64,000 nucleotides of DNA, from assembly GCA_963758525.1 (NCBI GenBank), contig CAVWVQ010000003.1, positions 3,648,001 to 3,712,000 of the forward strand. The letters are read 5' to 3'. Position numbers and translations under genes: made by a program. The notes beneath the pieces were generated by a model. That model did no database searches, had not been told where the DNA came from, and was given only the letters and a program-made list of their open reading frames with translations. The stretch is from an uncultured Phycisphaerales bacterium. GTDB taxonomy: Bacteria > Planctomycetota > Phycisphaerae > Tepidisphaerales > Tepidisphaeraceae. Below are positions 41,864 to 64,000 of the stretch, in pieces (within the stretch, counting starts at the first letter, position 1; every line of letters starts with the position of its first letter).

Positions 41864-41885
41864 GGGGAGAACGATATCGCCGAGC

Positions 41886-42824: not shown

Positions 42825-42843
42825 TTGTCGCTCAAGCTGAAAG

Positions 42844-45161: not shown

Positions 45162-46535
45162 ATGGCGAGCGTGAGTGACGAAAAACAACCTGAGGTGTGG
45201 GACGCAATCATCATCGGCGGCGGCCCGACTGGAGCGATCGCCGGCCTGGAGCTCGCGCGGCGCGGACGCCGCGCCCTCATCTTGGAAAAGGCGGAATTCC
45301 CGCGATTTCACGTCGGCGAATCGCTGCTGCCGGCGACGCTCGATCTGCTTAAAGAGCTGGGGCTGGAGGCAGAACTGCGGAAGCTGCCGCATGTGAAGAA
45401 GTTCGGTGCGGATTTTGCGATGGGGGGCAAGGGACTGCCGACGGAGATCGATTTTGCGCACGGGTATTGCCGGTCATTCGAGACGTTTAACATCGAGCGG
45501 TCGCTCTTTGACGCAATGCTTCTGCGCGAGGCGGAGAAGCGAGGCGCCCAAGTCCGGCAAGGGACGGCTGTCAGACGGATCGTGTCACTTGCCGATGGCG
45601 ACGTGTGCGTGGAGACGGATGCGGGGGAGGTTCGCGGGCGGTATTTGCTCGACGCGAGCGGGCAGGGCTCCGTGGTCGGCCGGCATCTGGGAACACGTCG
45701 CCCGGCTGAAGAGTCGTACCTCCACAAGGTCGCATACTTCAACCATTTCGAGAATGTATCGCGTGCCGACGGCATCAAGGGAGGCAATCCGCTCATCGCG
45801 ATGATGGACGAGGGTTGGTTCTGGCTCATTCCGATCACCGAACGTCGCACCAGCATCGGCATGGTGATCGATGCCGACACGGCCCGGCGCATCTCTCGCG
45901 AGGAAGGCGTCGCGCCGGATCGCATGCTCGCGTGGGGGCTGGATCGCTGCCCCGCGATGCTCAAGCGATTGCGTGATGCAATTCGGCCGCAGACGAACAA
46001 TGTTGCCGCGGATTTCAGCTATCGCTGCCGGCCCTACGCGGGGGAGGGTTATTTCCTGGTGGGCGACGCGGCGGCGTTTATGGACCCGATCTTTTCAACC
46101 GGAATCTTTGTCGGCACCCAGGGAGCGATGGCGACGGCCCGCCTGGTGGACGACATCCTTGCCGGTCGCATCAGCGCTTCGCGGGCGCGCAAACAGTATT
46201 GCCGCCAGTTCGAGCAGTGCACCGACACGCTCTTCAAGCTCATCGGCCAGTATTACGATCACTCGTTCCGCGAATTGTTCCTGCAGGGGTCCGGTCCGCT
46301 GGCGGTGCATCGCGCGGTGATCGGGGTCCTGGCGGGGAATGTTTTTCCGCGTCCGCCATTGAAGCTGCGATGGCGATTGTGGGTGTTCGATCAGTTCGTG
46401 AAGATCAATCGCAGCCGCCGGTTGGTGTCACCGCGACGAAGGTTTTCGCTGCTCAAGCAGACCGTGCCGTCCGCGGGTGCTGCGCCAATGATCGCAGTGG
46501 GCACTGGAACCCCGGGCGATCTCCCGCCGGTCTAG
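45162..46535 (+). CDS. Flavin-dependent halogenase-like oxidoreductase
   Basis: IIIGGGPTG, FPRFHVGESLLP, KKFGA, WFWLIP, GDAAAFMDPIFSTG. Confidence 0.82.
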   Translation: MASVSDEKQPEVWDAIIIGGGPTGAIAGLELARRGRRALILEKAEFPRFHVGESLLPATLDLLKELGLEAELRKLPHVKKFGADFAMGGKGLPTEIDFAHGYCRSFETFNIERSLFDAMLLREAEKRGAQVRQGTAVRRIVSLADGDVCVETDAGEVRGRYLLDASGQGSVVGRHLGTRRPAEESYLHKVAYFNHFENVSRADGIKGGNPLIAMMDEGWFWLIPITERRTSIGMVIDADTARRISREEGVAPDRMLAWGLDRCPAMLKRLRDAIRPQTNNVAADFSYRCRPYAGEGYFLVGDAAAFMDPIFSTGIFVGTQGAMATARLVDDILAGRISASRARKQYCRQFEQCTDTLFKLIGQYYDHSFRELFLQGSGPLAVHRAVIGVLAGNVFPRPPLKLRWRLWVFDQFVKINRSRRLVSPRRRFSLLKQTVPSAGAAPMIAVGTGTPGDLPPV

Positions 46536-46682
46536 AGCGAAGCGCAGCGGAGCGTTCGAGAGCGCTCCCGAGGCGCTCCTGCGGCTTAGCCTGGCGCATC
46601 CTGATCTTCTCCCCATTCCCCTTGCAAACGATTTCACGGTCTTCTAAGCTGCAATGTTCCTAAGGAAAGGGTTATCAAGATC

Positions 46683-46967
46683 TTGGATGCAGTGCGGAAT
46701 CAATCTCTCGACGAAATTAAGATCGAATTGAAACGGCTTCTGGTGGAAAATCTCTCGCTGGAAGACGTAAAGGCTGAAGATATTTCCGACGATGCAAACC
46801 TCTTTGGCGAAGACGGGATCGGGCTCGATTCGCTCGACGGGGTTGAGGTGGTCGTGCTGCTCCATCGCCAGTACGGGCTGGACGTGAAGGCAATGCAGAA
46901 GGGGCGCGACGTGTTCCGCTCGATCAATACCCTGGCGCCCTACGTGCTGGCCAACGCGACCAAGTAA
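46683..46967 (+). CDS. Acyl carrier protein
   Basis: LFGEDGIGLDSLD phosphopantetheine motif. Confidence 0.92.
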   Translation: MDAVRNQSLDEIKIELKRLLVENLSLEDVKAEDISDDANLFGEDGIGLDSLDGVEVVVLLHRQYGLDVKAMQKGRDVFRSINTLAPYVLANATK

Positions 46968-46985
46968 CAATTCGCGCGATTCATC

Positions 46986-48290
46986 ATGACACGCTCACCG
47001 ATCTGGATTGCGGGCGTCGGGGCAGTATGCGGAGCTGGTGACGATATCCCCTCGATTCTCAGCGCGTTCTCGACCGGCCGACGCAGGCCCGTGAACACGC
47101 TTCCCTTTAAAAGCTCCGTGGTGTGCCCGACATTCCAGGTTTCGGCGGATTTGCCGGTGCTTCCTGAACGATACAACAGCAGTCGCAGCCTCCGGATGAC
47201 GATCCGGGCTGTGCGGGAAGCGCTGGAAAACGCGGGGATCCGGCGATTGGGCGCTAACAGTCCGTTGCACAACCCCGCTCCGAATCTGAGCTACTCCGAA
47301 GGCTCGGATCAGGCGCCGGGAAATCCGAGCGTTCGGAGTACCTCAGACTCGGCGTGGAGGGGCTCCGAGTCGGGTTCTAACGTCCGCGTCGGCGTCTGCA
47401 TCGGAACGACGGTGGCGTGTCAGTTGAACAGCGTTTCGTTTTACGGCGCCTATCGCGGCGGGCAGGAACCGCCGCTCGACGCGGTCTGGAACTATCTGCA
47501 TTCGAATCTGGCGCAGGCGGTCGCGAGGTTGCTAAAGCTCAGCGGCCCGCGGATGACGGTCGTCAACGCATGCTCATCGGGCACCGACGCGATCGGCGTT
47601 GCCGCGAGCTGGATTCGCGCCGGTCTGTGTGACATCGCCATTGCCGGCGGCGCGGATGAATTGCACCCGGTGCCGATGTCGGGGTTCTGGTCGCTGGGGG
47701 TGATGAGCACCGAGCCGTGCCTGCCATTCGATCGCAACCGCAGCGGCTTGAATCTGGGAGAAGGCGCCGGGATCGTCGTGCTGGAGTCCGATGCGCACGC
47801 CAAGGCGCGCGATCGTCGCAATCAGTTTGAGGTTGCGGGTTTCGGCTCCGCTTGCGACGGACATCACCTGACCGCGCCGCATCCCGAAGGACGCGGGCTC
47901 GACGCCGCGATTCGCGCCGCCCTCCAACAGGCGGGCATTGCGCCCAATCAGATCGCGTTCGTCAATGCGCACGGCACCGCGACGCACGACAATGACCGTG
48001 CCGAAGGGAAAGTGCTGGCACGTCTCTTCGGCTCTGATGTGATGCTTCTCTCCACCAAAGGATACACCGGCCACGCCCTGGGGGCGGCGGGGGCGCTGGA
48101 AGCGGTGTTCACGCTGCTGGGCCTGCGGGAAAAATGGATTCCGCCCAGCGCGGGATTCGAGCAGCGCGACGACGATATTGGCGTTGCCCCTGCCGCGCGT
48201 CGCAGGTCGATTGACGGCAACTACGCGCTTTCCACGTCGCTCGCATTTGGCGGCAACAACGCGGCGCTGGTCATCAGGAGGCGCGCTTGA
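46986..48290 (+). CDS. Beta-ketoacyl-ACP synthase (FabF/B-like) with a 41-aa in-frame insertion
   Basis: NACSSG, HGTAT, KGYTGH catalytic C/H/H; SLAFGGNN. Confidence 0.92.
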   Translation: MTRSPIWIAGVGAVCGAGDDIPSILSAFSTGRRRPVNTLPFKSSVVCPTFQVSADLPVLPERYNSSRSLRMTIRAVREALENAGIRRLGANSPLHNPAPNLSYSEGSDQAPGNPSVRSTSDSAWRGSESGSNVRVGVCIGTTVACQLNSVSFYGAYRGGQEPPLDAVWNYLHSNLAQAVARLLKLSGPRMTVVNACSSGTDAIGVAASWIRAGLCDIAIAGGADELHPVPMSGFWSLGVMSTEPCLPFDRNRSGLNLGEGAGIVVLESDAHAKARDRRNQFEVAGFGSACDGHHLTAPHPEGRGLDAAIRAALQQAGIAPNQIAFVNAHGTATHDNDRAEGKVLARLFGSDVMLLSTKGYTGHALGAAGALEAVFTLLGLREKWIPPSAGFEQRDDDIGVAPAARRRSIDGNYALSTSLAFGGNNAALVIRRRA

Positions 48291-49150
48291 TTCAGCCAAT
48301 GGGAATCCTCGGCATCGGCGCGATCACCCCCTTCGGCAGAGATCTCGCGCAGGTTGCCCGGCACGTGCAGGAATCGGGCCGCAATCCGCCCAGCGGGCGG
48401 CGCGTCAACGATGAACTTTTGGTGGACCCGGCCATCAGCAAGCGAATGCGACGAGCCGATCGCTTTTCCCGGATGGCTGCCGTCGCCGCGATTGACGCAT
48501 GGAAACAGTCGAGCGGCGCCTGCGAGGATGTGCCCAGGGAACGCATCGGGCTGATCGTGACCTCCGGCTTCGGTCCGCATTGCCGCGGATTCCGATTCCT
48601 CGATGGAATGCTCGATTGCGGCGACAGTGCCGCCTCCCCCACGGATTTCTCTCACTCCGTTCATGGCGCCGCCGCCGCGTACATCACCGAACTGCTGGAA
48701 CTGCGCGGACCGTCCCTGAGCACGACGGACTTTGAAGTCGGATTCGAGGAAGCCGTCCTGCTCGCGCAATGCTGGCTCAATGACGGCACGTGCCAGCGCG
48801 TCCTGGTGGGGGCCGTCGAGGAACTGGGCGACGTGCTGCTGCATTGCGTGGCGCGCATGATCGCGCCGGAACAGTCAATGATTCTGGGCGAGGGCGCTCT
48901 CTTTTTCATGCTCGGGCCGGAGGCCGCCGGCGCGTTTGCGAGTCTCGACGCAGTTGCCGGGCCCCGGGCCGACGAGCTACGAATTATCGATGAATCTGAA
49001 AATCACTTCTGTCGCTCGGCGACGGATTCTGCCTTCCGGTTGCTCGCGACGGTGCTTTTGCCGCAGGTTGAAAATGCCCGGGTGGTTGGCGCATCGTGCG
49101 GCTTACGGGAAACTTCATTGGGCGTCACCCGTCGAAGCCCGATGATCTGA
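48287..49150 (+). CDS. Ketosynthase-like chain-length factor (N-terminal KS domain only)
   Basis: MRRADRFSRMA, SPTDFSHSVH; no catalytic Cys. Confidence 0.82.
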   Translation: MIQPMGILGIGAITPFGRDLAQVARHVQESGRNPPSGRRVNDELLVDPAISKRMRRADRFSRMAAVAAIDAWKQSSGACEDVPRERIGLIVTSGFGPHCRGFRFLDGMLDCGDSAASPTDFSHSVHGAAAAYITELLELRGPSLSTTDFEVGFEEAVLLAQCWLNDGTCQRVLVGAVEELGDVLLHCVARMIAPEQSMILGEGALFFMLGPEAAGAFASLDAVAGPRADELRIIDESENHFCRSATDSAFRLLATVLLPQVENARVVGASCGLRETSLGVTRRSPMI

Positions 49151-49170
49151 TTGCGGAGGAAGAATTTCAG

Positions 49171-49479
49171 ATGCTCCAAGCCAGCGATATTGAAGATGTT
49201 CAGAAGCAACTCTGCGAGGAAATTCGCGTGTTGATGTCGTTGAAGCCCGGCGCGGTTCTTCCCGACACCAGCCTGGCGGGCTTGGGCATCGATTCGCTGC
49301 GATTCGTTTCGCTGCTGATCGTCATCGAGCAGAAGTTCGGCGTGAGCCTGATGAAGGTGGGACTGAAAAAAGAGGACATGCAGTCTGTTCGCACGCTCTC
49401 CTCGGCGATTTGCGCGGGCGCAGCGCTTGAGGCTTTCGCTTCCCTATTTCCGCTCGCGCCGCTACCTGAGCGGCGTTGA
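49171..49479 (+). CDS. Acyl/peptidyl carrier protein (true stop probably ~49430, masked by a 1-nt deletion)
   Basis: LGIDSL motif, IEQKFGV; ggagg SD. Confidence 0.85.
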   Translation: MLQASDIEDVQKQLCEEIRVLMSLKPGAVLPDTSLAGLGIDSLRFVSLLIVIEQKFGVSLMKVGLKKEDMQSVRTLSSAICAGAALEAFASLFPLAPLPERR

Positions 49480-50761
49480 CTGGATGATGGGCGCGATGGA
49501 CTACCTGGCCATTCGCACCACCGGCATCGGCGCGCTCTCGCAGGCGATTCTCGACGTTGCGGGAAAGATCCCTGAGCCGGCGCTGCGCTCGGCCCTCGAT
49601 CAGATCTCGGATTGCTTTCCGCTCGTGCATGGCCGGGTGGCACGCGATTGTTTCAACCTCGCGCCATTCTGGAAAGTTTCGCGAAACGCCCGCGCGAAGC
49701 GGCTTGTGTTAAAGGTAGTGGACCTTTCCCAGGGCTCGGATACCGAAGCCGAGCGACTGCTCGCCGAGCACGTCAACACGCGCATGCAGCCGCGCTTTCA
49801 GCACCTGCGGTTTTTGCTGATTCATGTGGGCGAAACCCGGTCGCTTCTGGGGATGGTCTTCGACCATAAATTGCTGGACGCCTTCGGAGCCGAGTCATTC
49901 CTCCGGCTCATCGATCAGACTTCGCAGGGGAAGCTGGGGGAAATCGCGCCGCTGGTGAAGACCGCGGAACCCGCCCAACTCGATCACTGGATGCGCCGCT
50001 TTCAGTCCGGCAAGACCGTGAACGAGAGGCTCTTCAAACTGGGCCAGCGCGACCTTTCCGCGCTGCAAATGCCCGCTCCGGGCGGGTCGCACCGAGTCTG
50101 CTTTCTGCACGAAAAGCTGACCGTGCAGGAAACCGAGCACGTCCGCCAGCGATCCGGCGAAGAATGCGGCATGCCGATCCTGCTTCCCTCGACCGCCGCG
50201 CGCGCGGTCCTTGCCATGAAGCAGGCGATTCCGAATCCCCCGCTGGCGGGAACGCAGCATCTGGTTTTCACCTCCGCCAGCACGCGATCGCCGGGCCAGG
50301 AATGGGATGGACTGTTCTTCAACCAATTGTCGTTTCTGCTTTTCTCGGTGCCGGGGGAAGCGCCAACGTCGCCTGCGCCGCTGGCGGTGCTGCTCCGCGA
50401 CGAATTCTTCGACCAGATGAGAAGCGGCATGCCCGCCGCGCTGCAGGACGCGACGATATTGATGCGCATTTGCCCCCACTGGCTTGGAAGCCGGCTGATG
50501 AAACGCTTTTTCAAAGGCCGCGTTTGCTCGCTCTACTTCGCCTGCCTGCGCGAAACCGGCTTTTCCCAGAAGAGCTTCATGGGATTGCCGGCCGTCGATC
50601 TGATTCACACACCCACCGCTTTCGCGCCCCCCGGATTGAATTTGTGCATGACGTTTTTTGATGACCATTTCAATCTGGTGCTCTCGTATCTCGATGGGGC
50701 GATGCAGGAGAGCGAAGCCCGCGAGATGATGAGCCGATTTAAGTCGATGCTGATTGCCTGA
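49427..50761 (+). CDS. Stand-alone condensation-like / CAT-fold acyltransferase
   Basis: FPLVHGRV; FDHKLLDAFG (HxxxD motif); about 440 aa. Confidence 0.65.
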   Translation: MRLSLPYFRSRRYLSGVDWMMGAMDYLAIRTTGIGALSQAILDVAGKIPEPALRSALDQISDCFPLVHGRVARDCFNLAPFWKVSRNARAKRLVLKVVDLSQGSDTEAERLLAEHVNTRMQPRFQHLRFLLIHVGETRSLLGMVFDHKLLDAFGAESFLRLIDQTSQGKLGEIAPLVKTAEPAQLDHWMRRFQSGKTVNERLFKLGQRDLSALQMPAPGGSHRVCFLHEKLTVQETEHVRQRSGEECGMPILLPSTAARAVLAMKQAIPNPPLAGTQHLVFTSASTRSPGQEWDGLFFNQLSFLLFSVPGEAPTSPAPLAVLLRDEFFDQMRSGMPAALQDATILMRICPHWLGSRLMKRFFKGRVCSLYFACLRETGFSQKSFMGLPAVDLIHTPTAFAPPGLNLCMTFFDDHFNLVLSYLDGAMQESEAREMMSRFKSMLIA

Positions 50762-50818
50762 GTGCCGGGCCGGTATGTCAGGGAAATAAGCGAATCGCAG
50801 TTGTGACGCCCAAATCCT

Positions 50819-50937
50819 CCCCCGTGGCACGGGCATCTTGCCCGTGTTGGCGACTTGAGCAGAAAAAAACCGTTGTTACCAAAGCCTCCCGTCAGCACCA
50901 CGCTCCCAACACGGGCAGGATGCCCGTGCCACGGGGA
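50819..50937. repeat. GTGG-type REP doublet between convergent operons
   Basis: gtggcacgggcatcttgcccgtgttgg ... ccaacacgggcaggatgcccgtgccac. Confidence 0.88.
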
Positions 50938-50949
50938 ACGGCCCTGAAA

Positions 50950-52389
50950 TCACGCTGGCGATTGTCGATTCCTTGCGAGTTTGCCGCTGACTGTTTTGGG
51001 AAGGGCGGAAACGATCTCGAACTCAGCCGGCACTTTGTAGGAAGAGAGCCGCTCGAGGCAACGTGCGCGAAGTGACTCGACGGTGGCAGCATCGCCCGCA
51101 TCGGCTCGAACCACGACTTGGGCCGCCACCGTCTGCCCAAACTGCGCGTGTTCGCGTCCCCAAACGAGCGATTCGGTGACGCCGGGCAGCGCATTGATCG
51201 TCTCTTCGACCTCCTCGGGGAAGACTTTCATCCCAGCGCACACGATCACGGTCTTGCCGCGGCCCAGCAGCGTCAAACGTTCTTCCGCGTCCAGCCGTCC
51301 GAGGTCGCCGGTATGAAACCAGCCGTCGTCGAGACATTCCTCCCGCAGTCTCCAGGGAGAAACGTAGGCATCGAACATTCCCTTTCCCTTGAGCAGCACC
51401 TCACCGATGCCATCGCGATCGGGGCTGGCAATGCGAAGCTGATAGTCGGGCAGGATTCGGCCGACGGAGTTTTCTTCCGCGTCATGCGGATCGGTGTTGA
51501 TGAACGGCAGGCCGACTTCGATGATCCCATATGCTTCGGCGGGAATGACGCCAAACTTGTCCGCGAATCGTTTCGAAATGTCGCGGGGCATCTTCATCGC
51601 AGTGCTGATCGCGAGCCGTACCTTCGAGAGAGATGCAGGTGCTACCAGGTCCGAAGCGCCCAGCAGGTAATAGTGGACGGGCGACGCGTAGATCAGCGTG
51701 ATCGGGAAACGCCCGGCCGCATCGAGAACCGAAAACGGAAAATTGCGATTTGCGACGATGATCGTCGCGCCTTTTCGCAGGAACAGCAGAATCGACACGA
51801 CGAAATGATGGCTCATTCCCAGCACCCAGAGAATCACGTCCCGATCCGTCACACGCAGTCCCTGATTGGCCGCATCCGTGCGCTCGATGATCGAGCGATG
51901 GCAAAGCACAACGCCCTTGCTCTCGCCGGTGGTGCCGGAAGAGAATCGAATGAACGCAGGTTGCAGCTCGCGGCATCGCTGATCCAAAGCCGAACCGGCG
52001 CGGCGCGGTTGCCAGATGAACATGTCGTCGAGCGTCTCGAACGCCGGTTCATCTGCCGGACGCGGCAGGTCACGATGGGACAGTATTCCGTGCACATCGA
52101 TGCGGTCGACCGTTTCCTCAATCTCGTCTCGCGTCAACGTATCCGCAATCGGAACGACGGCGGCGCCGCTTTGCAGGATCGCCAATGCTGCGACGACATA
52201 ATCAATGCCGTCGCTGCACCGCAGTGCGATGCGACGACCGATGCCGATGTCGCGGCCTGCGAGCGTCCGGCTCAGGTTCGTGATGTGCGCCAGCAGTTGT
52301 TCGTAGGTAATCGACTGCTCGCCCTCGACGATGGCCGCGCGCTCGCCCAACGATCGAGTCTCCTCCCGGATGGTGTCGACGATGTTCAT
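50950..52389 (-). CDS. AMP-binding (class I adenylate-forming) ligase
   Basis: FSSGTTGESKG, AYGIIE, WFHTGDLG, LPKTVSGKL. Confidence 0.92.
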   Translation of the reverse strand: MNIVDTIREETRSLGERAAIVEGEQSITYEQLLAHITNLSRTLAGRDIGIGRRIALRCSDGIDYVVAALAILQSGAAVVPIADTLTRDEIEETVDRIDVHGILSHRDLPRPADEPAFETLDDMFIWQPRRAGSALDQRCRELQPAFIRFSSGTTGESKGVVLCHRSIIERTDAANQGLRVTDRDVILWVLGMSHHFVVSILLFLRKGATIIVANRNFPFSVLDAAGRFPITLIYASPVHYYLLGASDLVAPASLSKVRLAISTAMKMPRDISKRFADKFGVIPAEAYGIIEVGLPFINTDPHDAEENSVGRILPDYQLRIASPDRDGIGEVLLKGKGMFDAYVSPWRLREECLDDGWFHTGDLGRLDAEERLTLLGRGKTVIVCAGMKVFPEEVEETINALPGVTESLVWGREHAQFGQTVAAQVVVRADAGDAATVESLRARCLERLSSYKVPAEFEIVSALPKTVSGKLARNRQSPA

Positions 52390-53574
52390 GCAGTCTTCGC
52401 TCGCGATGCTGCCAGTGTGTAGACGAGGATGGTCAGAGTCGGAGCGATGGTGAAGGCCACGATGTGCGATCCCACAAACCACCGCAAGTGCGGCCCAGCC
52501 GACGGTGGCAGAACGCGGTCCGCGACGCGCAGCGAGAATCGCGGCACTGCGGGAAACATCGTCATCGCGACAACGAGCAGCGCGATCGCCTTGTTCAGAT
52601 GCAGTCGGCCGGCAATATAAACTACGGCGATTGGTCCCCATGGCCAGAAAACGATTCCCAGCAATGCCGACAATCCAGCGGCGGCGGCGACGCCCATCGG
52701 GGAGCAGAGTCCGCGCAGCCAGGTGACGGCTGTGTCCACGTGTTCGGGGGCAATATTGTGGTGCGGGCTTCCAGCCTGCAGCTTCTTTCCCCTCCCCTGG
52801 TACTCCGGGGGGCGAAGAAGGCGTCCGGCCGCGGTACTTTTCAGCAGGGGATGCGGAATCGGCAACAGCTCGCGGGCCACGAGCTTCGCATGCACCAGCG
52901 AAATGCGGGCGTTATCGCGAATGGGATGGAAGCTCGAGACACGTTCTGCCGCGTCGGGATACCAGACGCGGATGGGCAGACTTTTGACGTTCAACCCGGC
53001 CCACAAAGCGCGGGTGATGATTTCCATCTCAAAGTTGTAATGCCGCGACTGGATCGCCAGTCCGCTGATGTGCCGCACCGGATAAGCGCGAAAGCCACTT
53101 TGGGTGTCGCGGACGACTACACCGGTTTCGACGCCGATCCAGAAATCCGAGAAATCGCGCCGAAAAGGCTCGATCGCGGCATCGGGCCGCTGATCTGTTC
53201 CCGCCGTCCAATTAGAATCGTGTCGGGGGAAAGTTCTGGCAGGAAGCGCGGAATATCCTCGGGAAAGTGCTGCCCGTCTCCGTCGAGCGTGATCAAATAC
53301 CTGGCTTGCCCCTTCGCGGCAGCCTCAAAGGCCGTAGCGAGCGCCGCGCCTTTTCCGAGGTTCACCGGATGACGAATCACGGTGACCTCAACATCTTTCA
53401 ACAGTGTCCGCAGATCCGCGTCGGTGCTGCCATCATCGATAACGAGCACATTGAAAAGTTGCGCCGCGCTCGTTTGACGACATCGACGATCGTCGCGGCA
53501 TTGTTGTAAACCGGGATAGCGCACCACGTCTGCGTCTCCGGAGCCGCGGACGTGATCGAAAGCTTTGGCATCAT
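52386..53574 (-). CDS. GT2 glycosyltransferase with C-terminal membrane (DUF2062-like) region; frameshifts near 53465 and 53165
   Basis: IPVYNN, VIDDGSTD, NLGKGAAL, LDGDGQH, DTQSGFRAYP, SSFHPIRDN across three frames. Confidence 0.82.
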
Positions 53575-55899: not shown

Positions 55900-56285
55900 G
55901 CCGCGGCTCCCGCCGGCGCGGATCGGGCGATCAACGCAAACTCGGCGCGTTTCTGATCGGCGACGAAGAGGCGCGCCTTGATGGCGAGTTCGCCGTCGCT
56001 GTTGCAGCTCATGTCGGCATCGATGAGCACTTCCTCCCCCGGACGCACAGGCTGAAGCAGCTTGGAATTCTTCAGCCGGCACAACTGCAGATCGCCGATG
56101 CCATGCGCGGCCGCCCCGGCCAGCAGCACCGCCTGCAGCATGCAGATTCCGGGGAAAATGGGTTGAGCCGGAAAATGATCGGCCAGCAGCACGAAATTCG
56201 GATCGAGCATCAGCCGGGCGCGAAAACCGCCTTCGCGCGGTTCGGTGGTCAGCATCGATCGCAACTGCTCGCGTACCGCGTTCAT
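55896..56285 (-). CDS. 3-hydroxyacyl-ACP dehydratase-like (FabZ/ApeI hotdog)
   Basis: HFPAQPIFPG, KLLQPVRPG. Confidence 0.85.
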   Translation of the reverse strand: MNAVREQLRSMLTTEPREGGFRARLMLDPNFVLLADHFPAQPIFPGICMLQAVLLAGAAAHGIGDLQLCRLKNSKLLQPVRPGEEVLIDADMSCNSDGELAIKARLFVADQKRAEFALIARSAPAGAAA

Positions 56286-56288
56286 GCG

Positions 56289-57122
56289 TTATTGCTTTTG
56301 CCAATCACGGTTCTTCACGACGATTCGGTAGAAGTACCGGCTATTGTCCATCACGATCCCACGCGGGTAAAGCCCGCCGCCGGCGGCGACGTAATCGAAG
56401 TATTGCACGCGCCAGATGGTGCCGAAGAACCCGGCCTGCCGTTTTTCCAGCAGGACCGGCGGATTTGCGCCCAGCTCGAAGATCAGCGTTCCCTGCTGGT
56501 CGCGCTGGTTATAACGCACAAAAGTGCGGCGCGGTTCCGCCACGGCGGAGGCGGGGGGGGCCAGATCGAAATACATTCGCCGAACGTCGTTTGCGACCGA
56601 GAGCAGCAGATCCTGATGCTGATCGAGCGGCGGAATCGCAAAGCGCACCACGCTGTTCCGCCGATCGCCGCCCACTGCAAAGAGCTGGACCCCCAGTTGA
56701 TTGAGACCAACAAGGTCGAACGTTCCCGCGATTCGATCGACGCGGACGACGCCGAGCACGGCCAGATCGTGAAACGGCGCGTGGATGATCACGGTGTCGT
56801 CAGAAATGAACTGCGGCGGGATCGAACGGGCGACGCTTTCGCGCATCGCCTGGGGATCGGGGTTGACGAGCACGGGCAGAGTGCCGCGCGAGAACGGTTC
56901 GTGCGCGCAGCCAGTGAGTATCGAGAACAATACCAGCGTCAGCGCGATTCCCCCTCCGACGGCCGGCCCGCACCCTGGCCCTCCCCCGGAATACCAGGGC
57001 AGGGAAAGGAGGGAGTCGTATCTTGCGATGCGCCGCTGGCTCTTCGCCGCCGGCGGCATGGAGCACCGGAGGAGGGGAAAACCAGATTCGCAGCCGATCC
57101 GCTCGCTCGCAGCTCTACTCAC
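56289..57122 (-). CDS. DUF3261-like lipoprotein of aryl-polyene-type clusters
   Basis: Lipobox ILTGC, LVGLNQLGVQLF; position between MMPL and the dehydratase. Start uncertain. Confidence 0.65.
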   Translation of the reverse strand: MSRAASERIGCESGFPLLRCSMPPAAKSQRRIARYDSLLSLPWYSGGGPGCGPAVGGGIALTLVLFSILTGCAHEPFSRGTLPVLVNPDPQAMRESVARSIPPQFISDDTVIIHAPFHDLAVLGVVRVDRIAGTFDLVGLNQLGVQLFAVGGDRRNSVVRFAIPPLDQHQDLLLSVANDVRRMYFDLAPPASAVAEPRRTFVRYNQRDQQGTLIFELGANPPVLLEKRQAGFFGTIWRVQYFDYVAAGGGLYPRGIVMDNSRYFYRIVVKNRDWQKQ

Positions 57123-59490
57123 GCTCTCCTCCAAAGCCGCCACTTTTCCAGCAGGTAGCACGCGCCGGGAATGCCGATGAACGCGGTGAGATAGCCGGTG
57201 AGCACGCCGGAGGTCATGCTGACGCCGACGAGGTGCAACGCCGGATGATGCGCGAAGATGAGCGACGCGGTGCCGGCGAGCGTGGTGAGCGACGACAGAT
57301 GCATCGACGCCATTCCCTGACCTAGCATGCGCTCGTTTCCATCCCACGCATACGCCGCGAACACGCCGTAGTCGCTGGCGAGTGCCATGATCAGAATCGC
57401 GACCACGACGCTGACGACGCTGATGGACAATGAGAGCGTCGTGAGCGTCGCCAGCATGAAAATGACGCCGCAGATGGCCGGCAGCATGATGATCGTCGAC
57501 TTCAGCACGCTTCGCGTGAGCAGCAGCAGCGACACGACGATGAACGCGGCGCTGACGCTGACGAGCAGGCGATTCTCCGCCACCGCCGACTCGGCAAACG
57601 CCTGGCTGAGCGCGCGCCGGGAGACCACTTGCGCTTCGGGATGGCCGGCGATCAATCCGCGGACGGATGCGACGTTTTGCTCAGTGTCCTCAAAGTAGCT
57701 GAGAACCTGATGATCGCCGTTGGCGGTGGCGAGGAATTGCTGCTCGATCGTCGCGAGAATCGGATTGGAGGAGTCATCCGGCGGCGGCTGGGTCAGGCTG
57801 TCGAAGAACGGATCAAACGCATTGGGAGCAAAGCCGAACGGGGCGGCTGCGGCGGCGACGTCGCGTCGAACGTCGGCAATCCGCCGGGGCGTCCAGAACG
57901 CGCGCCAGCGCGTCTGGTTCTCCTGCCGGGTTTGCGACGAAGGCCAGAAGCTCGCCAGCGACGTGAACGAACCCTGCGGGACATGTCCCGCTATGACCTT
58001 GTACAGGCGATCGTTGGCCTCCTCGGCGTCTTCGAGCGATTTGCCGGAGACCGCCAGCAGCGCCATCTCCGCGTCGGTGCGTCCCCATGTCTTCTGAAAA
58101 TTCGCCTCGTTTTCCTTCACGGCAGCGCTGACGCCGTCGAGGGTGCTGATGTCGGAGTTGAAACTGATCTTTCGCCCGACGACGCACGCCACCAGCAGCG
58201 CGGCTGCGCCGAGGATTGTCAGCGGCACCATTCTCCGGCCCCACTGCCGCAGGGGCGGCCCCTGGCCCAGCGCCATGATCTTGCCGCCGGGCTTGACGAT
58301 TACGGGAAGAACAAACAGCGCGCCCAGCAGCGAAAGCACCAGGGAGACGCTGGTGAGATAGCCGAGCTGGCGGTAGGCGGGAATGTGCGAGAAGAGCAGG
58401 GCGATGAAGACGCCCAGCGTGGTGAGATGGCAGATGATCAGCGGGCGCTGGATGCGGCGGACGTCGGCCTGAGGATCGTTGCCGAGCCAGACCGCGGTGT
58501 ACACGAAAATGCCGTAATCGACGGCGCTGCCCGCCATCGTCGCGGCCAGGCCGATGACGATGGTGGAGAGATGCGGGAAGACCAGCGCGCACATGCCGAT
58601 GGTCGCCGCGATGGTGATGACCGGAAGCAGAAAGACCGCCGCCACCCGCCAGTCGCGGCAGATGACCAGAAAAAGCAGCACGAACGCGATGCTGTTGATG
58701 AGGGCGGCGCGGTTGATGTCGCTCTGCATCAGTTGATTGTTCTGCTCTGTGTGAATCTGCGCAGATCGGCGTGATCTGAATGCCGGGCGGCGCCGCGGCG
58801 CAGATGGCATTGAGATGTTTCACCAGTGCCGAGGAACCCGCCAGGCTCGTCGCGGTGGTGGAAGTTTCCATCGGCAGCATCAATTGCCGGCCGTCGGGGT
58901 GAAGCAGATGGCCGTCCTTGACCTCAACGCGAAAGTTAATGCCGTTGGTGAGATCGAGCAGGCGCTTGAGAATGCGCGATTCCACGCCCAGCGGATCGCG
59001 GCGGATCACCGGCTGAAAAAACGAACCCTCCGGCTTGAGAAGCTGCAGATAGCATTCGCGCATTCGCTTGCGCAGCGCATCGGGCGCGGTCGCTTTTTCC
59101 ACCTCGGCCAGGTCGCTGGCATTGAGCAATTCGCCGGCATGGTCCATCAGGGCGATTGCCTGGGCGAGCGCATTCGCCTCGCCGGGCGGATGCAGCACGC
59201 GGCTGATCAACGTCGGATCGAGCTTCTTCTCCGTTTCGTCAGCCGCCGCGATCAGATCCTGCGTCGATCCGCCGTCGGTCAGCCGAAACCAGAGAACCGC
59301 CTTGGCGGCGAAGCTGGAATCGCGCAGAAACAAAATGGTGCGCCGCGCCTCGCTGTTCTCCGGCAGCAGCGGCTCCAGTGAACTGTCGATGTGCAGCCGA
59401 AACCAGCCGCAGACGGACAGCAAACCGATCACCAGCGCGCACAGCGAAATCCAGCGCGTCAGCGGCCGGCTTGCGCGGTGCGTCGCTCAT
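57119..59490 (-). CDS. MMPL/RND family exporter, frameshifts near 58760 and 59470
   Basis: RRDPLG, GSAVDYGIF, ALASDYGVF; two TM bundles. Confidence 0.85.
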
Positions 59491-59808: not shown

Positions 59809-60672
59809 TCACTGAGCCGGCGGAATCGCCCATGTCTCTTTCGGAATCGGCTGATTGATTTTGGTGTCCTTGAATTGCAGCGTGGTCACGTCGCCGCTCG
59901 CTTCCGTCACGACCATTTTATCAATGTATTGCTCGCTCTTGCCGAACGTGAGATCGATCTGCTTGATTACCTTCGCAACCATCGACTGGCCCTTGGGAAC
60001 GAAGAGGAGCCGCAGAGGATGCTCGCCTTCGAGTTCGGCGTCGTACCCGTCACCGAGTGTCTTCAGGTCGCCCATGAACCACGCCTGCAACTGCTGATTG
60101 ACCGCGGCGAACGTGGGATCGCCGCCGAGGTGAATCACCTGCACCTGATTCGTGTCTTCGTCCCATTGGCGGATTTCCTCGCCCTCAATGCGGATGGCGT
60201 ATTTCACCGGATCGCGGACGATCCAGACCAGCTTGTCGGGCTTCTGCAGCGCAAATCGGCCGGAGATCGTCACCTTGTGATTCAGCACGGAGAGCTGCTT
60301 TTCCTGCGTAAAGTCCGCCTGCACGGTGTCGACCGTTTTGAGCTGTTGCTGAAGATGTTCGAGCACCTCCAGCGAGACGCGCGTGGTCGGGCCGGGATCG
60401 GCGGCGGGTTGGGTCGCGGGAATCTCCGCGTGGAGAGCGCTGACCGACGCAAAAACAAAAAAGGAAGTCACGAAAAGGCAGGTTGGATGTTTCCATCGCG
60501 ATAACGTTCTTCCCCCTCTCCCGGTACTCCGGGAGAGGGTCGGGGTGAGGGTGCCTTGGAATGGCGAAAGGCTCGCGACACTCCGAATCACCCTCACCCT
60601 CTCCCGGAGTACCGGGAGAGGGGACCAGAAAGTCGTTCGACCGAGGTCAGCGATTAATGCAGTCAAGTTCAT
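59809..60672 (-). CDS. LolA-like outer-membrane lipoprotein/lipid carrier
   Basis: VQADFTQEK, GRFALQKPDKLVW, EASGDVTTLQF; ATGA-coupled start. Confidence 0.82.
   Translation of the reverse strand: MNLTALIADLGRTTFWSPLPVLRERVRVIRSVASLSPFQGTLTPTLSRSTGRGGRTLSRWKHPTCLFVTSFFVFASVSALHAEIPATQPAADPGPTTRVSLEVLEHLQQQLKTVDTVQADFTQEKQLSVLNHKVTISGRFALQKPDKLVWIVRDPVKYAIRIEGEEIRQWDEDTNQVQVIHLGGDPTFAAVNQQLQAWFMGDLKTLGDGYDAELEGEHPLRLLFVPKGQSMVAKVIKQIDLTFGKSEQYIDKMVVTEASGDVTTLQFKDTKINQPIPKETWAIPPAQ
60511..60625. repeat. CCCTCTCCC-family REP doublet inside the 5' end of the LolA-like gene
   Basis: cccctctcccggtactccgggagagggtcggggtgaggg ... ccctcaccctctcccggagtaccgggagagggg. Confidence 0.9.
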
Positions 60673-62177
60673 ACAAGCATCGCCTTCTCCGCTTCCACGC
60701 TGGGACGCCAGACTTTCAGTTCGCCGCTGGCCAGGAATCTGCCATCCTCGTGAGAGACGGTTCCTTCGACAACCCCGAAATCGCCGAAACGCGCGACCTT
60801 TTTCACGTCGACGAACAGGCGGTCTCCCGCGTGAGCCGTTCCCTCGATCCTGAGGTCCTTGACGCCCAGCAGCATTCCGCGATGCAGCGACTGTTCGTCG
60901 GCAGAAAGATGAAATCCATGCGACGCGGCAAACGACTGGGCGATCATCTCGATGTAAGCGGCTTCGTCCAGCCGGCCGGATTCGTCGACGAAAAGCGAAT
61001 CGGATCGGACGACGAATTCGGTGCGCGCAGAGCGCTCCCCGACGGCGATGATGCGATCGACCATCCGGATGCGCGGACCATGCGGAATCATGCCGCCGAT
61101 CGGCGCCGGCAGCGCGGGGATCGCCGTTCCCTCCGCTTTCCAGCAAAGCTGATCGCCGGCGAGATAGTCGCCGGTGAGCTGATATGCCGAGCCCCGGCAG
61201 CCGTAGCAGTCGGTCGTTTTGGAGCACGTTCGGCACGGCTCTTTCACCTTCTGTCCGAATGCGCGGAGATTTTCCAGCACTTCGCTCTCATCGAGGATTG
61301 TTCGCAGCGATTCGGTGCGAATATTTCCCAGCGGAATCGTGACGCCGACACAGGCAAAGATCGTTCCGCAGGGAGTGACATGACAGGCGAAGAGGTGCCG
61401 CTTGCACGAACGCCCGGTCAACTCCGGCGGATGCTCCCAAGTTTTGCCGAACTCGTCGCGGTCGATGCGACCCAGCTCGTTGAACAGTTGCCGGGCGCGC
61501 TGCGGCGCGACGACCCGGCCGGACGCATCGGCAGACGAACGGGGGCTGATCATTTGAAGGTAAGGTTCGACGCCGAGCGATCGCGTGCGCCGCCACCAAT
61601 CGGGCAAGGCTTCAATGTTGTCGTTGCGAACGGCCACGCGCGCTGCAAGAGGTGGTGCATCCGCTGAACAATAGCCGGCCTTCCGAAGCACATCGATCGC
61701 GACAGATGAGCCGAGAAGCGGATCGACTTTCAGCACGACAGCGACGTGTCGATTGCGCATGAACTCCGCCAGCTCCGAGTTGAGGCAGTCGCCGTCGGCA
61801 AATAGCTCGATTTCAACATTGCGCACGCGCAGGTGTTCGATCAGCTCCCGCAATCGGGGGGAAAGAATTGGATCGCCCGTTTTTCCGTGTTCGAGGATTG
61901 CCCCGCGCGTCCCACCGGGAGGGGATTCGACCAGGATGAACCGTCGGGCTCCCAGTGCGATCGCCTGATCGGACAAACCCAGAATTTCTTCAATCGACAG
62001 AACCGCTCGCGGCATCAAAGCGCAGGCCTCGCAGTGGCAAGCGATGTCCTCTGAAAGATCCAATTCGATGGAAAGCAGGCCTTTCGCGGCCACGGCCGCG
62101 GCGATTTGCCCGGCGGTAAAGCCGATGCCGCTGACGCGAATGGTGCAGTCGCCGCGCACGCTAATTGGCCTCTCCAC
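60669..62177 (-). CDS. Radical SAM/SPASM-like protein fused to a C-terminal hotdog (FabA/ApeP-like) domain
   Basis: Atypical CHCEAC; SPASM CKRH..C...C...CRTC...CYGCRG...C; C-terminal IPHGPRIRMVD, EMIAQS. Confidence 0.8.
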   Translation of the reverse strand: MERPISVRGDCTIRVSGIGFTAGQIAAAVAAKGLLSIELDLSEDIACHCEACALMPRAVLSIEEILGLSDQAIALGARRFILVESPPGGTRGAILEHGKTGDPILSPRLRELIEHLRVRNVEIELFADGDCLNSELAEFMRNRHVAVVLKVDPLLGSSVAIDVLRKAGYCSADAPPLAARVAVRNDNIEALPDWWRRTRSLGVEPYLQMISPRSSADASGRVVAPQRARQLFNELGRIDRDEFGKTWEHPPELTGRSCKRHLFACHVTPCGTIFACVGVTIPLGNIRTESLRTILDESEVLENLRAFGQKVKEPCRTCSKTTDCYGCRGSAYQLTGDYLAGDQLCWKAEGTAIPALPAPIGGMIPHGPRIRMVDRIIAVGERSARTEFVVRSDSLFVDESGRLDEAAYIEMIAQSFAASHGFHLSADEQSLHRGMLLGVKDLRIEGTAHAGDRLFVDVKKVARFGDFGVVEGTVSHEDGRFLASGELKVWRPSVEAEKAMLV

Positions 62178-62952
62178 CGGCTTCGATCGTATCCAGATGC
62201 GCGCGAATCCGGTCTCGCGCCAGATTCTTCAGTTGGTAGGGGCTCATGCCACCATGCTCCTCGGGCTTGATTGCCGGCAGTTTTGTGAACGTGATCCGGC
62301 CGGGGTGCAGGAGCAATGAGCCTTTGTGCGGGATGTCCTCGTTTCCTGCGATCGCAATAGGCACGACGCTCACGCCCGCCCGCTGTGCAAGCCGGAACGA
62401 AGAGCCGTGGAACGGACCGAGCTTCCGGGAGCCCGAGCGCGTGCCCTCGGGGAACGCGATGATGGAGCAGCCGACGGAAAGCAGTTTCGCGCCGGCTTCC
62501 ATGAATTCCTCGAAAGGCATCTCCCGCACTTTGAGGTATTCACCTTTTGTCGCAAGCGTCCCCATGACGGGCATGTGAGCGGGCCAGATGTTCAACACCT
62601 GCACGGTTTCAATCGGCAGATAGGCCATCAGGAAACCATCGGAGAGAGAGCGATGATTGGCGACAAATACGCAGGGCATTTTCTGGTCTGGCTCGAGATC
62701 GATAAATCGCACCCGGACAAACGGCCAGCCGCAGCGGACGATCATCGCTCCATAATAACTGATGCCGCGGCGGGTCAGTCGTTTGGTCAGCCGGCGGTTG
62801 CGCGATGCGTAGTGGACCAGTGTCACGAACGAGGCGACTGCAACGCCATAGATCACGGAGAGAATCGGCGCCATGATCCAGAAGATGAGATTCAGGGCGA
62901 CGAATTGGGCCCGCCACAGGATCGAGCGGCGATGCGCCACCTGCCGTGACAT
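62161..62952 (-). CDS. Lysophospholipid (PlsC-like) acyltransferase
   Basis: ANHRSLSD, FPEGTRS. Confidence 0.9.
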   Translation of the reverse strand: MSRQVAHRRSILWRAQFVALNLIFWIMAPILSVIYGVAVASFVTLVHYASRNRRLTKRLTRRGISYYGAMIVRCGWPFVRVRFIDLEPDQKMPCVFVANHRSLSDGFLMAYLPIETVQVLNIWPAHMPVMGTLATKGEYLKVREMPFEEFMEAGAKLLSVGCSIIAFPEGTRSGSRKLGPFHGSSFRLAQRAGVSVVPIAIAGNEDIPHKGSLLLHPGRITFTKLPAIKPEEHGGMSPYQLKNLARDRIRAHLDTIEAGGEAN

Positions 62953-62956
62953 CCAT

Positions 62957-63217
62957 TCACGCCTTCTGCTGCTCACCGCGAATGAGGATCAGGTAATTAT
63001 AGAGATCCTGCATGCTGCGAATGGATCGCACGCGTTCATCGTCGCGGACTTGCACGCCGAACCGCTTTTGAATTGCCGCCACCAGATCGACCACGTCGAG
63101 GCTGTCCAGTCCCAGGTCGCTGAAGATCTGTGCGTCAGGCGTGAGCTTTTCCCGCGGAATCTCGAAGGAATCCGCGAACACCTCGTTCACCGCATCGATC
63201 AGCTCGGGGTTGGTCAT
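62957..63217 (-). CDS. Acyl carrier protein
   Basis: DLGLDSLD motif. Confidence 0.93.
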   Translation of the reverse strand: MTNPELIDAVNEVFADSFEIPREKLTPDAQIFSDLGLDSLDVVDLVAAIQKRFGVQVRDDERVRSIRSMQDLYNYLILIRGEQQKA

Positions 63218-63364
63218 GCACTCTCTTGCCCGCCGATTCGGAATCTAACGGTGGCCGGGCGCGAATGCAACCAGAACCCGTTTCGCCAGCGGCTTTCTCT
63301 GTGGCTCGTGGGCGTCCGGCGCGTCCCGCGCGTGCTGGCGACGTGGAAGCAAGAGGACGTTGGA

Positions 63365-64000
63365 TTATGCGAATTCCATATCGCCGATCGGCAGCTCGGC
63401 GCTTCGGTACATCTCCAGCACGCGATGGATGTCGCCGTCCTGTCTTCGATCGGCATCATTGACGGGCACGTGCTTGCGAATCGCGTCATGCAGTGCTTTG
63501 GCTCTGGTGTGGCATCCCTCGCGGTTACGCAGATCGACGGCCTGGCAAAGGGCGAGTTGCACGACGGCCAGGACCGTCTCGGTCAGCTCCAGCACGCGCA
63601 GCGCGTCTCTGGCGGCGATGGTGCCCATGCTCACTTTGTCCTGATTGTGCGACTCGGTGCTGCGGCTGAAAACGCTGGCGGGCATCGTCAGCTTCAACGC
63701 CTCGGCGGCAAGAGCCGACGCGGTGATCTGCATCGCTTTGAATCCGTGATGGCTCACGTGATCCGGGCCGGCGCGGGCGACGAGATCGGCGGGCAGCCCG
63801 TTGCTGGTGGCGGGATTGCAGATCAGGGCCATCTGGCGATCGATCAGGTCCGCGATGTTGGCGACGGCGATCTTGAGCATGTCCATCGCCATGCAGGGAT
63901 GTCCGCCGTAGAAATTACCACCGTGAAGCACATCGCCGGTGGCGGCGTCGAGGAGGGGATTGTCGTTGGAGCTGTTGATTTCGGTTTCGAGCAGGCCGCG
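63365..64000 (-). CDS. Aromatic amino acid ammonia-lyase (HAL/PAL/TAL family), 5'-truncated by the window edge
   Basis: EINSSNDNPL, HGGNFYG, NGLP, ESHNQDKVSMG. Confidence 0.92.
   Translation of the reverse strand, partial: RGLLETEINSSNDNPLLDAATGDVLHGGNFYGGHPCMAMDMLKIAVANIADLIDRQMALICNPATSNGLPADLVARAGPDHVSHHGFKAMQITASALAAEALKLTMPASVFSRSTESHNQDKVSMGTIAARDALRVLELTETVLAVVQLALCQAVDLRNREGCHTRAKALHDAIRKHVPVNDADRRQDGDIHRVLEMYRSAELPIGDMEFA

Follow-up and report, generated by a model that had tools for sequence, protein, structure and literature searches.

What does a soil planctomycete make from a gene cluster in which type II polyketide synthase (PKS) genes stand together with a halogenase, an ammonia-lyase and a free-standing condensation-type protein? 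The question is raised by a window of 64,000 nucleotides from an uncultured Phycisphaerales bacterium (GenBank assembly GCA_963758525.1, contig CAVWVQ010000003.1, positions 3,648,001 to 3,712,000 of the forward strand). Positions below count from the first nucleotide of this window, and those past 64000 are window-equivalent. The listing of open reading frames (ORFs) and scans with Pfam and NCBIfam models delimit a 28-kb cluster, from ~45162 to ~72790, which is arranged in two convergent arms. When the next 20 kb of the contig were scanned, ~8.8 kb of further cluster DNA was found past the end of the window. Direct observation covers the genes present, their folds and catalytic motifs, and the conservation of gene order; the substrates and the product are predicted from sequence. 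We read the locus as an aryl-polyene-type lipid cluster making a halogenated aryl-polyene glycolipid for the outer membrane, and we put the probability of this reading at roughly 0.6. Chance is not an issue, because domain E-values go down to 1e-50 and the gene order is repeated in 16 of 21 Phycisphaerae loci.

Judged by its sequence relatives, the cluster is one member of a cluster family that appears to be conserved in Tepidisphaerales. Three features are distinctive here: an unannotated condensation enzyme shared across phyla, a motif-changed fusion of a SPASM domain to a dehydratase, and an optional carrier-type halogenase. Already known are halogenated aryl polyenes (xanthomonadins), aryl-polyene (APE) glycolipids and antiSMASH arylpolyene clusters in this bacterial family. 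Few aryl-polyene products are known, and none from Planctomycetota was found in the literature searched.

Gene set and proposed pathway

The aryl starter would be supplied by two enzymes encoded on the minus strand. The first is an aromatic amino acid ammonia-lyase of the 4-methylideneimidazole-5-one (MIO) type, whose C-terminal part lies at 63365..64000 and whose gene extends to 64901 (Lyase_aromatic E 5e-54). It contains the ASG triad, and the histidine of its RFHGCG motif aligns with the substrate-contact histidine of SgTAM (RSHSAG). Its nearest solved relatives are tyrosine aminomutases. Tyrosine specificity is likely, and the lyase would convert tyrosine to 4-coumarate. The second is an AMP-forming acyl/aryl ligase (50950..52389; AMP-binding E 8.5e-50, AMP-binding_C), which would activate 4-coumarate and load it onto an acyl carrier protein (ACP).

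The chain would be built into a conjugated polyene by ketosynthase (KS)/chain-length factor (CLF) pairs, a FabG-like ketoreductase (KR) and two hotdog dehydratases. On the plus strand, ACPa (46683..46967; PP-binding, LDSL serine, 68.9 bits with NCBIfam PRK09184 against a cut-off of 70) is followed by KSa (46986..48290; N- and C-terminal Ketoacyl-synt domains, PRK09185 at 289 bits, Cys-His-His triad) and by CLFa (48287..49150), a truncated KS-like protein of 287 residues and of the chain-length-factor type. CLFa has the N-terminal ketoacyl-synt domain only, and inspection, by eye only, found no active-site motif in it. ACPb (49096..49479; PP-binding E 3e-07, IDSL serine) comes next. The second pair is on the minus strand. 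It consists of KSb (54288..55453, with its start near 55402-55453; Ketoacyl-synt C and N domains, PRK09185 at 190 bits) and its partner CLFb (53669..54235), which has no Pfam match of its own and is 51% identical to residues 515-690 and 430-572 of the relatives' KS-CLF frames. The third carrier, ACPc (62957..63244; PP-binding E 1.5e-12, LDSL serine), is also on the minus strand, and a third KS, KSc, lies past the window and scores 422 bits with NCBIfam PRK09116. Inspection of the sequences finds Cys-His-His in all three KS proteins and the DSL serine in all three ACPs. The presence of two KS/CLF pairs, a third KS and three ACPs suggests that two separate chains are made, as in Xenorhabdus aryl-polyene lipids.

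Both dehydratases are encoded on the minus strand. One is FabZ/ApeI-like (55896..56288; fabZ TIGR01750 E 1.6e-6) and carries the motif HFPAQPIFPG; its Pfam matches to FabA (E 4.5e-4) and to the ApeI-like family (E 4.8e-3) are both below cut-off. The other, ApeP-like, is the C-terminal part of a 502-residue fusion protein (60669..62177) with a radical S-adenosylmethionine (SAM)-type fold and a SPASM domain, to which we return below. The hotdog thioesterase of the 4HBT/YbgC type (55408..55902, minus strand; 4HBT_2 E 3.6e-15) would act in release or proofreading.

The plus-strand arm begins with a putative flavin-dependent halogenase of the CndH/CmlS/PltA type (45162..46535; FAD_binding_3). Its score with Trp_halogenase (PF04820) is 94 bits, against a cut-off of 21, while its score of 203.8 bits with the NCBIfam CmlS model is below cut-off. 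The nearest solved relatives are CndH (3e1t, E 3.9e-56), CmlS, Bmp2, PltA and Mpy16, several of which act on carrier-bound substrates. The protein contains GGGPTG and GWFWLIP, and its K80 aligns with the lysine of IKRGG in CndH, so that GxGxxG, WxWxIP, the lysine and the Pfam score expected of a flavin-dependent halogenase are all present. The position beside ACPa fits a carrier-bound substrate, and the enzyme would halogenate the aryl head while it is bound to the carrier.

Attachment and export would complete the pathway. The plus-strand arm ends with the free-standing condensation-fold protein of 444 residues (49427..50761), which would transfer a chain from ACPb to a sugar or lipid, at a hydroxyl or amine group; this acceptor would be the product of the family 2 glycosyltransferase (GT2; 52386..53541, minus strand; Glycos_transf_2 E 1e-16). 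Further chains would be added by a PlsC-type (lysophospholipid) acyltransferase (62161..62988, minus strand; PF01553 E 1.3e-18) and by an LpxL-type acyltransferase past the window. The lipid would be carried outward by three minus-strand gene products. These are an MMPL/RND-type exporter (57119..59486; MMPL 24.5 bits, with matches to the HpnN/HAE3 models), a LolA-like carrier (59809..60480; LolA E 7e-18, LolA2_flexi 105.1 bits against a cut-off of 125) and a lipoprotein (56289..57116). The lipoprotein is recognizable from the lipobox ILTGC in its translation and is kept in relatives; Pfam gives nothing for it at E ≤ 1.

Past position 64000 follow, in order, the N-terminal half of the lyase, a flavin adenine dinucleotide (FAD) oxidoreductase of family PF12831, a small BamE-like protein, KSc, a CrtD-like desaturase, the FabG/FlxB-like KR, a methyltransferase on the plus strand and the LpxL-type acyltransferase. 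Aspartyl-tRNA synthetase (AspRS) then marks the end of the cluster. An ORF at 68988-69581 was discarded as spurious; it overlaps the desaturase and KR genes and has zero matches.

Most of what the earlier note had listed for this locus is borne out. Pfam and NCBIfam scans and translation found all of its genes in place in the two convergent arms, and the gene content agrees with its assignment to APE/flexirubin-like type II PKS lipid clusters with a lyase and an AMP-ligase. The KR that it had stated to be absent inside the window, with the cluster continuing beyond, lies within the ~8.8-kb extension. The gene it had called halogenase-like from WxWxIP has the flavin-binding motif and the aligned lysine as well. 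Its planctomycete host is in line with the nearest named relatives of two cluster proteins, which come from Tepidisphaeraceae/Tepidisphaerales metagenome-assembled genomes (MAGs).

Condensation-fold protein, conserved module and SPASM fusion

The 444-residue protein has no match in Pfam (E ≤ 0.01, PF00668 included), NCBIfam or the PDB sequences. The protein collection holds 124 homologues of it. Among the 120 listed, four contain PF00668, most are unnamed, and those with a name are all called 'hypothetical protein'. The AlphaFold (AF2) model has a predicted local distance difference test score (pLDDT) of 91. With this model, Foldseek retrieved condensation, cyclisation and epimerisation domains of nonribosomal peptide synthetases (NRPS) with a probability of 1.0; the free-standing matches are AzeD (8s6l; E 1.3e-22, TM 0.73), PapA5 and SgcC5, all at 10-17% identity. 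A language-model atlas agrees with this picture. The protein contains FDHKLLD, with DHxxxD at residues 146-151, and D146, H147 and D151 are invariant in an alignment of 30 sequences. On the basis of the model, the protein is a free-standing member of the NRPS condensation fold: the two-lobed fold resembling chloramphenicol acetyltransferase (CAT) and the His-x3-Asp motif of the superfamily are present, and recognition by PF00668 is absent. The earlier description of this gene as an HxxxD condensation-like acyltransferase is right at the level of fold.

We then scanned one genome per species for relatives of this protein, which gave 198 confirmed sites, of which 78 loci were kept. They are distributed over Tepidisphaerales/Phycisphaerae, Brocadiia, Verrucomicrobiota, Desulfobacterota, Nitrospirota, Acidobacteriota, Omnitrophota, Kiritimatiellia, Nitrospinota and others. 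The proteins of the present cluster were aligned to these loci, and matches within 10 kb of the condensation gene were counted. ACPb has a match in 63 of the 78 loci, the AMP-ligase in 59, CLFa in 57, KSa in 56 and ACPa in 50, followed by the PF12831 oxidoreductase (47), GT2 (43) and the LpxL-type acyltransferase (25). The halogenase is matched in ten, one of which is a 29% match to a different flavoprotein. Within the same 10-kb flanks, the ammonia-lyase is found in none of the 78.

The layout was inspected in 21 Phycisphaerae loci with at least 40% identity to the condensation protein. The convergent AMP-ligase is present in 18 of them, and 16 run on through GT2, CLFb, KSb, thioesterase, dehydratase, lipoprotein and MMPL as in the window. 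Sixteen of the Phycisphaerae loci contain ACPa and extend at least 1.4 kb upstream of it, and in 9 of these the halogenase immediately precedes ACPa. From these comparisons, the plus arm appears to be an old, conserved module in which the halogenase alone is variable. The arm had previously been taken for an unusual local addition; this view does not stand, given that the module recurs in many phyla and that the two-arm layout is common to Phycisphaerae MAGs. Within the family the distribution is patchy: the condensation gene occurs in 6 of 81 genomes sampled, this genome included. It was not found in two genomes of the same genus (94% and 81% complete). One of the 81 genomes, G004, which is flagged as unpublished and on which nothing else here depends, has no condensation-gene match and matches part of the halogenase stretch only. 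In a relative, G003, halogenase-ACP-KS and CLF-ACP-condensation gene are on separate contigs.

Two loci from other phyla were fully annotated, one in a Nitrospirota MAG (1374-15505 of locus L099) and one in a Brocadiia MAG (2572-13958 of locus L055). They share a core of KS-CLF, two B12-binding radical SAM genes, a further KS-CLF, the condensation protein, the PF12831 oxidoreductase and the AMP-ligase. Beyond this core, the Nitrospirota locus contains a third gene for a B12-binding radical SAM protein together with GT2/DUF2062, LpxL-type and polysaccharide deacetylase genes; the Brocadiia locus begins with a thioesterase and has an ACP ahead of the second KS. This suggests a differently tailored lipid made from the same core.

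The fusion protein at 60669..62177 has 381 homologues, many of which are named 'radical SAM ... / hotdog dehydratase'. Its C-terminal 150 residues resemble chain B of the Xenorhabdus ApeI:P complex (6qsr_B) both in sequence (E 2.5e-6) and in Foldseek, where this is the top match (E 2.2e-10). With VIA, residues 355-502 give a Z of 19.3 to ApeI:P chain B, tied with FabZ (1u1z, 19.4), and residues ~17-355 give Z values of 14.7-18.1 to PqqE, SuiB, SkfB, anSME and MoaA (PqqE 18.1, SuiB 17.9, anSME 16.4). The fusion model has a pLDDT of 74; Foldseek retrieved hotdog folds only, and the radical SAM fold emerged only with VIA. The SPASM domain (PF13186) scores 30.3 bits against a cut-off of 21.5, and its cysteines are invariant in 22 aligned sequences. 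In Pfam, PF04055 gives no match. The partial triosephosphate isomerase (TIM) barrel and the SPASM fold are there, and the CX3CX2C and GGE motifs of the radical SAM superfamily are not.

Instead, the protein has CxCxxC (C47, C49, C52) and VESPP at positions where distant homologues have CNFRCPYC and GGEP. We tallied these motifs in 101 of the 120 homologues listed, those below 440 residues being dropped. CxCxxC without GGEP was found in 79, CX3CX2C with GGEP in 13, and neither motif within the first 110 residues in nine. The nine comprise five full-length proteins without the cysteine triad there, three without the N-terminal part and one with an incomplete CxC. All three cluster-site cysteines of radical SAM enzymes are lost in the homologues P0188, P0192, P0193, P0195 and P0217. 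Judged from the model and the motifs, the radical SAM domain of the fusion probably no longer cleaves SAM, and the radical-SAM-fold/SPASM domain may serve as an iron-sulfur (Fe-S) or scaffolding part of the dehydratase pair; in the pathway proposed here it would play this role for the ApeP-like dehydratase. Of the radical SAM/SPASM gene that the earlier note had reported, the SPASM domain and the fold are retained, while its canonical motifs are replaced and it is fused to a dehydratase.

A wider reading, which we offer tentatively and regard as doubtful, takes the module as an uncharacterised envelope-lipid pathway of many phyla. It would consist of ACP-KS-CLF-ACP, the condensation-fold enzyme, the AMP-ligase, GT2, the PF12831 flavoprotein and the LpxL-type acyltransferase. 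The step that links the type II PKS chain to its anchor, a sugar or a lipid, would fall to a condensation enzyme of the NRPS type and not to a lipid acyltransferase. In Tepidisphaerales, aryl-polyene export genes and a halogenase that depends on a carrier would have joined this pathway, and a radical SAM/SPASM enzyme would have become, for the chain dehydratase, an Fe-S partner without radical chemistry.

Among the alternatives to a halogenated aryl-polyene glycolipid, the one that survives best, unlikely as it is, holds that the conserved module (ACP-KS-CLF-ACP, condensation protein, AMP-ligase, GT2, FAD oxidoreductase and LpxL-type acyltransferase) makes a non-aryl lipid, which could be a fatty acyl chain, conjugated or modified in another way, that is attached to an amino-sugar or to a lipid anchor. 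On this view the lyase and halogenase would be additions specific to the lineage, or would feed one of two chains only. The finding that the module occurs in Nitrospirota, Desulfobacterota, Verrucomicrobiota, Brocadiia and others, and that its 10-kb flanks contain no lyase, speaks for it, and so do the B12-binding radical SAM genes of the Nitrospirota and Brocadiia loci, the polysaccharide deacetylase of the former, and the Xenorhabdus lipid, which, in the part of its description available, bears a non-aryl conjugated C26:5 chain from a second ACP. However, the lyase belongs here to the same minus-strand gene run, adjoining ACPc and PlsC; flanks of 10 kb are too short for a lyase placed as here, 13 kb from the condensation gene; and a CndH-like halogenase best suits an aromatic substrate. 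That two unrelated pathways stand back to back by chance, one for a small halogenated polyketide or acyl ester on the plus strand and one for an ordinary aryl polyene on the minus strand, is very improbable, for although the convergent arms with a palindromic repeat between them and the placement of halogenase-ACP-KS on another contig than CLF-ACP-condensation gene in G003 would suit it, the arms are paired in 18 of the 21 Phycisphaerae loci, other phyla hold condensation gene, AMP-ligase and GT2 in one same-strand run, and the plus arm is without its own KR, dehydratase or loading enzyme.

Frame breaks and repeats

The reading frames were judged against the homologous clusters of G003 and G005, two genomes that belong to the same family and to other genera. 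Compared with these relatives, frames are broken in GT2 (~53160 and ~53460), KSb (~55208), MMPL (~58740) and the lyase (~64150). In GT2, a single ORF of the relative is spread over three frames of the window. In both relatives (13712-15823 of locus L010 and 833-2641 of locus L013), a single stop-to-stop frame spans KSb and CLFb, which may form one fused protein there; in the window they are separated by a stop and a frame change. The total for the cluster is five to six breaks in 27.6 kb. The AMP-ligase, at 65% identity, and the SPASM-dehydratase fusion gene are in a single frame compared with the relatives.

To set these breaks against a background, ORFs of at least 250 residues from 20 stretches of G003 (274 queries) were aligned to the whole genome; restricting the result to a single best match per position, with an identity of 50% or more and a coverage of 60% or more, left 71 conserved genes. 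The frame is changed in 14 of them, or about one in five, with 19 changes in 98.5 kb, that is 0.19 per kb or about one per 5 kb, a rate that assumes the G003 frames to be correct. A smaller initial sample had given ~3 broken genes of ~14 outside the cluster. Four of the six break sites in the cluster are at runs of A4-5 or G4, both GT2 sites being at A4; no homopolymer run is present at the MMPL site or at the possible KSb-CLFb site near 54260. Because the break density of the cluster equals that of the whole genome, the breaks are most likely assembly errors rather than decay, and the concern that the frameshifts are real and the cluster silent, which had been raised before, loses its ground accordingly. 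Apparent pseudogenes anywhere in this assembly are to be judged against about one frame break per 5 kb.

The KSa gene is interrupted in frame, at 47259-47361, by a palindromic repeat of ~100-120 bp that has 65 high-scoring segment pairs (HSPs) in the genome. The insertion adds ~41 Ser/Gly/Pro-rich residues, which are absent from all four aligned homologues. Two further repeat families, each found in both orientations in the genome, are represented by palindromic multi-copy repeats at 50820..50936 and 60510..60629. The former (75 HSPs, reverse self-match) is located between the convergent arms and could act as a two-way terminator. The latter (271 HSPs) is intergenic, between the LolA and fusion genes, and its family is found in several relatives too.

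The reading of the locus as a decaying, silent remnant takes the frame breaks and the KSa insertion as real lesions. The five to six breaks relative to other genomes, the repeat within KSa, the failure to find the condensation gene in the two congeneric genomes and the two break sites without a homopolymer run are in its favour. Against these, the breaks are no denser than the genome-wide 0.19 per kb, the KSa insertion keeps the frame, and all catalytic motifs checked are intact. Moreover, a low-depth contig of a public soil run, which is independent of the assembly, has one extra G after 49415, near the end of ACPb; this may be a strain difference or an assembly indel, and a one-base indel is what would be expected if indel errors exist. 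Decay is hence a poor candidate, with little probability left to it.

Several observations weigh against the halogenated aryl-polyene glycolipid proposed here. As assembled, five genes are frame-broken, and the short low-depth contigs of two public soil runs cover none of the six break sites. The 41-residue repeat-derived insertion could inactivate KSa. The bit score of KSa is 169.6 with solved ApeO and 202 with an ordinary FabF, so that it is no closer to ApeO; in the PDB sequence comparison of KSa, CLFa and KSc in general, Ape-type and FabF/FabB-type ketosynthases are not separated. The N-terminal half of the lyase scores best with histidine ammonia-lyase (HAL) models, and the motif of the enzyme is compatible with a HAL. 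No lyase is found within 10 kb in the other phyla, so that an aryl starter may be dispensable for the conserved module. The donor and acceptor given for the condensation protein are guesses from gene order. Finally, the ApeI-like Pfam match is below cut-off, and DUF3261 (ApeN) was not detected in the cluster scans.

Just upstream of the cluster, and unrelated to it, the minus strand carries an RNA repair set (38214-44370). It consists of Pnkp (kinase-phosphatase-ligase, 858 residues), two nucleotidyltransferase-like genes of the RlaP family and Hen1, a ligase-activating methyltransferase.

Comparison with known systems

Aryl-polyene clusters are described, in the portions of the literature available, as the biosynthetic cluster family that is most widespread in bacteria. 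The present cluster resembles the ape clusters of E. coli CFT073 and Xenorhabdus doucetiae, whose lipid product is called APEL, in having KS with truncated CLF, several ACPs, an AMP-ligase, a KR and a thioesterase. As far as the accessible text of PMC8253772 and of bioRxiv 10.1101/2020.12.19.423268 goes, it also shares with them hotdog dehydratases of the ApeI/ApeP type, a GT2, a PlsC-type acyltransferase and the LolA/MMPL/lipoprotein export set. Measured against an ape-type cluster, which has a KS with a truncated, Cys-less CLF-type partner and dedicated ACPs, two KS/CLF pairs and three ACPs are found, along with the ApeI/ApeP-type dehydratase pair, the FabG-like KR (beyond the window end), the lipid attachment genes and the export set. 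For the aryl starter, genes for an MIO lyase (ASG, aligned His) and an AMP-ligase are present, the identity of the substrate being read from sequence only. The condensation-fold, halogenase and ammonia-lyase genes, the SPASM fusion, the CrtD-like desaturase and the PF12831 oxidoreductase are not named among ApeA-R in the part of that description available, and there are two KS/CLF pairs here. In turn, the COG4648 membrane protein (ApeG) went undetected in the cluster scans, as did DUF3261.

For the Xenorhabdus lipid, the available part of the description reports an aryl polyene made on ApeE and esterified to N-acetylgalactosamine (GalNAc)-phosphate-glycerol, which also bears a conjugated C26:5 chain made on ApeF (bioRxiv 10.1101/2020.12.19.423268). 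The transferases are given there as ApeD and ApeJ, and the exporters as ApeL, ApeM and ApeN (PMC8253772; bioRxiv 10.1101/2020.12.19.423268). The earlier suggestion of an undescribed glyco/acyl-polyene lipid therefore holds as to the product, which is uncharacterised, and not as to its kind, as a lipid of this kind is described for Xenorhabdus (bioRxiv 10.1101/2020.12.19.423268, available part). A halogenase in an aryl-polyene cluster, also thought unusual, has a precedent in xanthomonadin clusters: according to the accessible description, a halogenase gene lies near a KS/CLF pair and a GT2-like gene, and xanthomonadins are brominated (PMC3691225). Compared by this description, the clusters have in common a type II PKS, unusual KS/CLF, and GT2-like and halogenase genes (PMC3691225). 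In the xanthomonadin-type cluster of Azoarcus, the starter acid comes from a XanB2-type chorismate-using enzyme, as the available part of PMC3949708 has it; unlike that cluster, the present one has an MIO lyase.

With the flexirubin clusters of Bacteroidota, the cluster shares a putative tyrosine ammonia-lyase, a short-chain dehydrogenase/reductase (SDR) and a LolA-like gene. In NCBIfam, FlxB is the top-scoring model for the reductase and LolA2_flexi the top LolA model, and FlxA is matched too, with all scores below the equivalog cut-offs (FlxB 302.1/340, LolA2 105.1/125, FlxA halves 128.1 and 181.3/700). The general region scans, none of which was aimed at dialkylresorcinol genes, turned up none of these. 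Celluxanthene was set aside as not comparable, its pathway using an iterative PKS. Nearer to the host, antiSMASH labelled two clusters of a cultured Tepidisphaeraceae strain as 'arylpolyene', according to the accessible part of PMC13514998. Our literature searches, whose coverage excluded subscription journals, found no paper in which a condensation-fold gene or a SPASM gene is described from an aryl-polyene cluster.

A ladderane cluster was considered and rejected: the gene set differs, and B12-binding radical SAM domains, which with amxACP/amxFabZ would mark such a cluster, are absent from the scans of the cluster region. Measured against values that we assume for anammox bacteria, neither the GC content nor the size of this genome is suggestive of that group. 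The anammox ladderane cluster, in the part of its proposal available, comprises type II fatty acid synthase (FAS)-like, phytoene-desaturase-like and radical SAM genes (PMC10139942). The likeness lies in the FAS-like, desaturase-like and radical-SAM-type genes, with relatives of the condensation gene in Brocadiia MAGs; as described there, the ladderane cluster is without AMP-ligase, condensation-fold gene and export set (PMC10139942).

Two of the distinctive proteins each raise an enzymatic question. For the condensation protein, the question is which role a free-standing condensation enzyme has within a type II PKS lipid pathway. It shares the two-lobed fold (TM 0.56-0.73) and the His-x3-Asp at the lobe junction with AzeD (8s6l), PapA5 (1q9j), SgcC5 (4znm) and NRPS condensation domains, PapA5 and SgcC5 being carrier-to-alcohol acyltransferases. 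It differs from all of these in its 10-17% identity, in having DHxxxD rather than HHxxxDG, and in its type II PKS partners. For the fusion protein, the question is what use is made of a SPASM/radical SAM domain that is without SAM-cleaving motifs and still fused to a dehydratase. Its partial TIM barrel and SPASM domain match PqqE (6c8v), SuiB, SkfB and anSME (4k36) with Z values of 16-18 over ~250-280 residues. Unlike those radical SAM/SPASM enzymes, it has CxCxxC in place of CX3CX2C, has lost GGE, and is joined to a dehydratase of the fatty-acid type.

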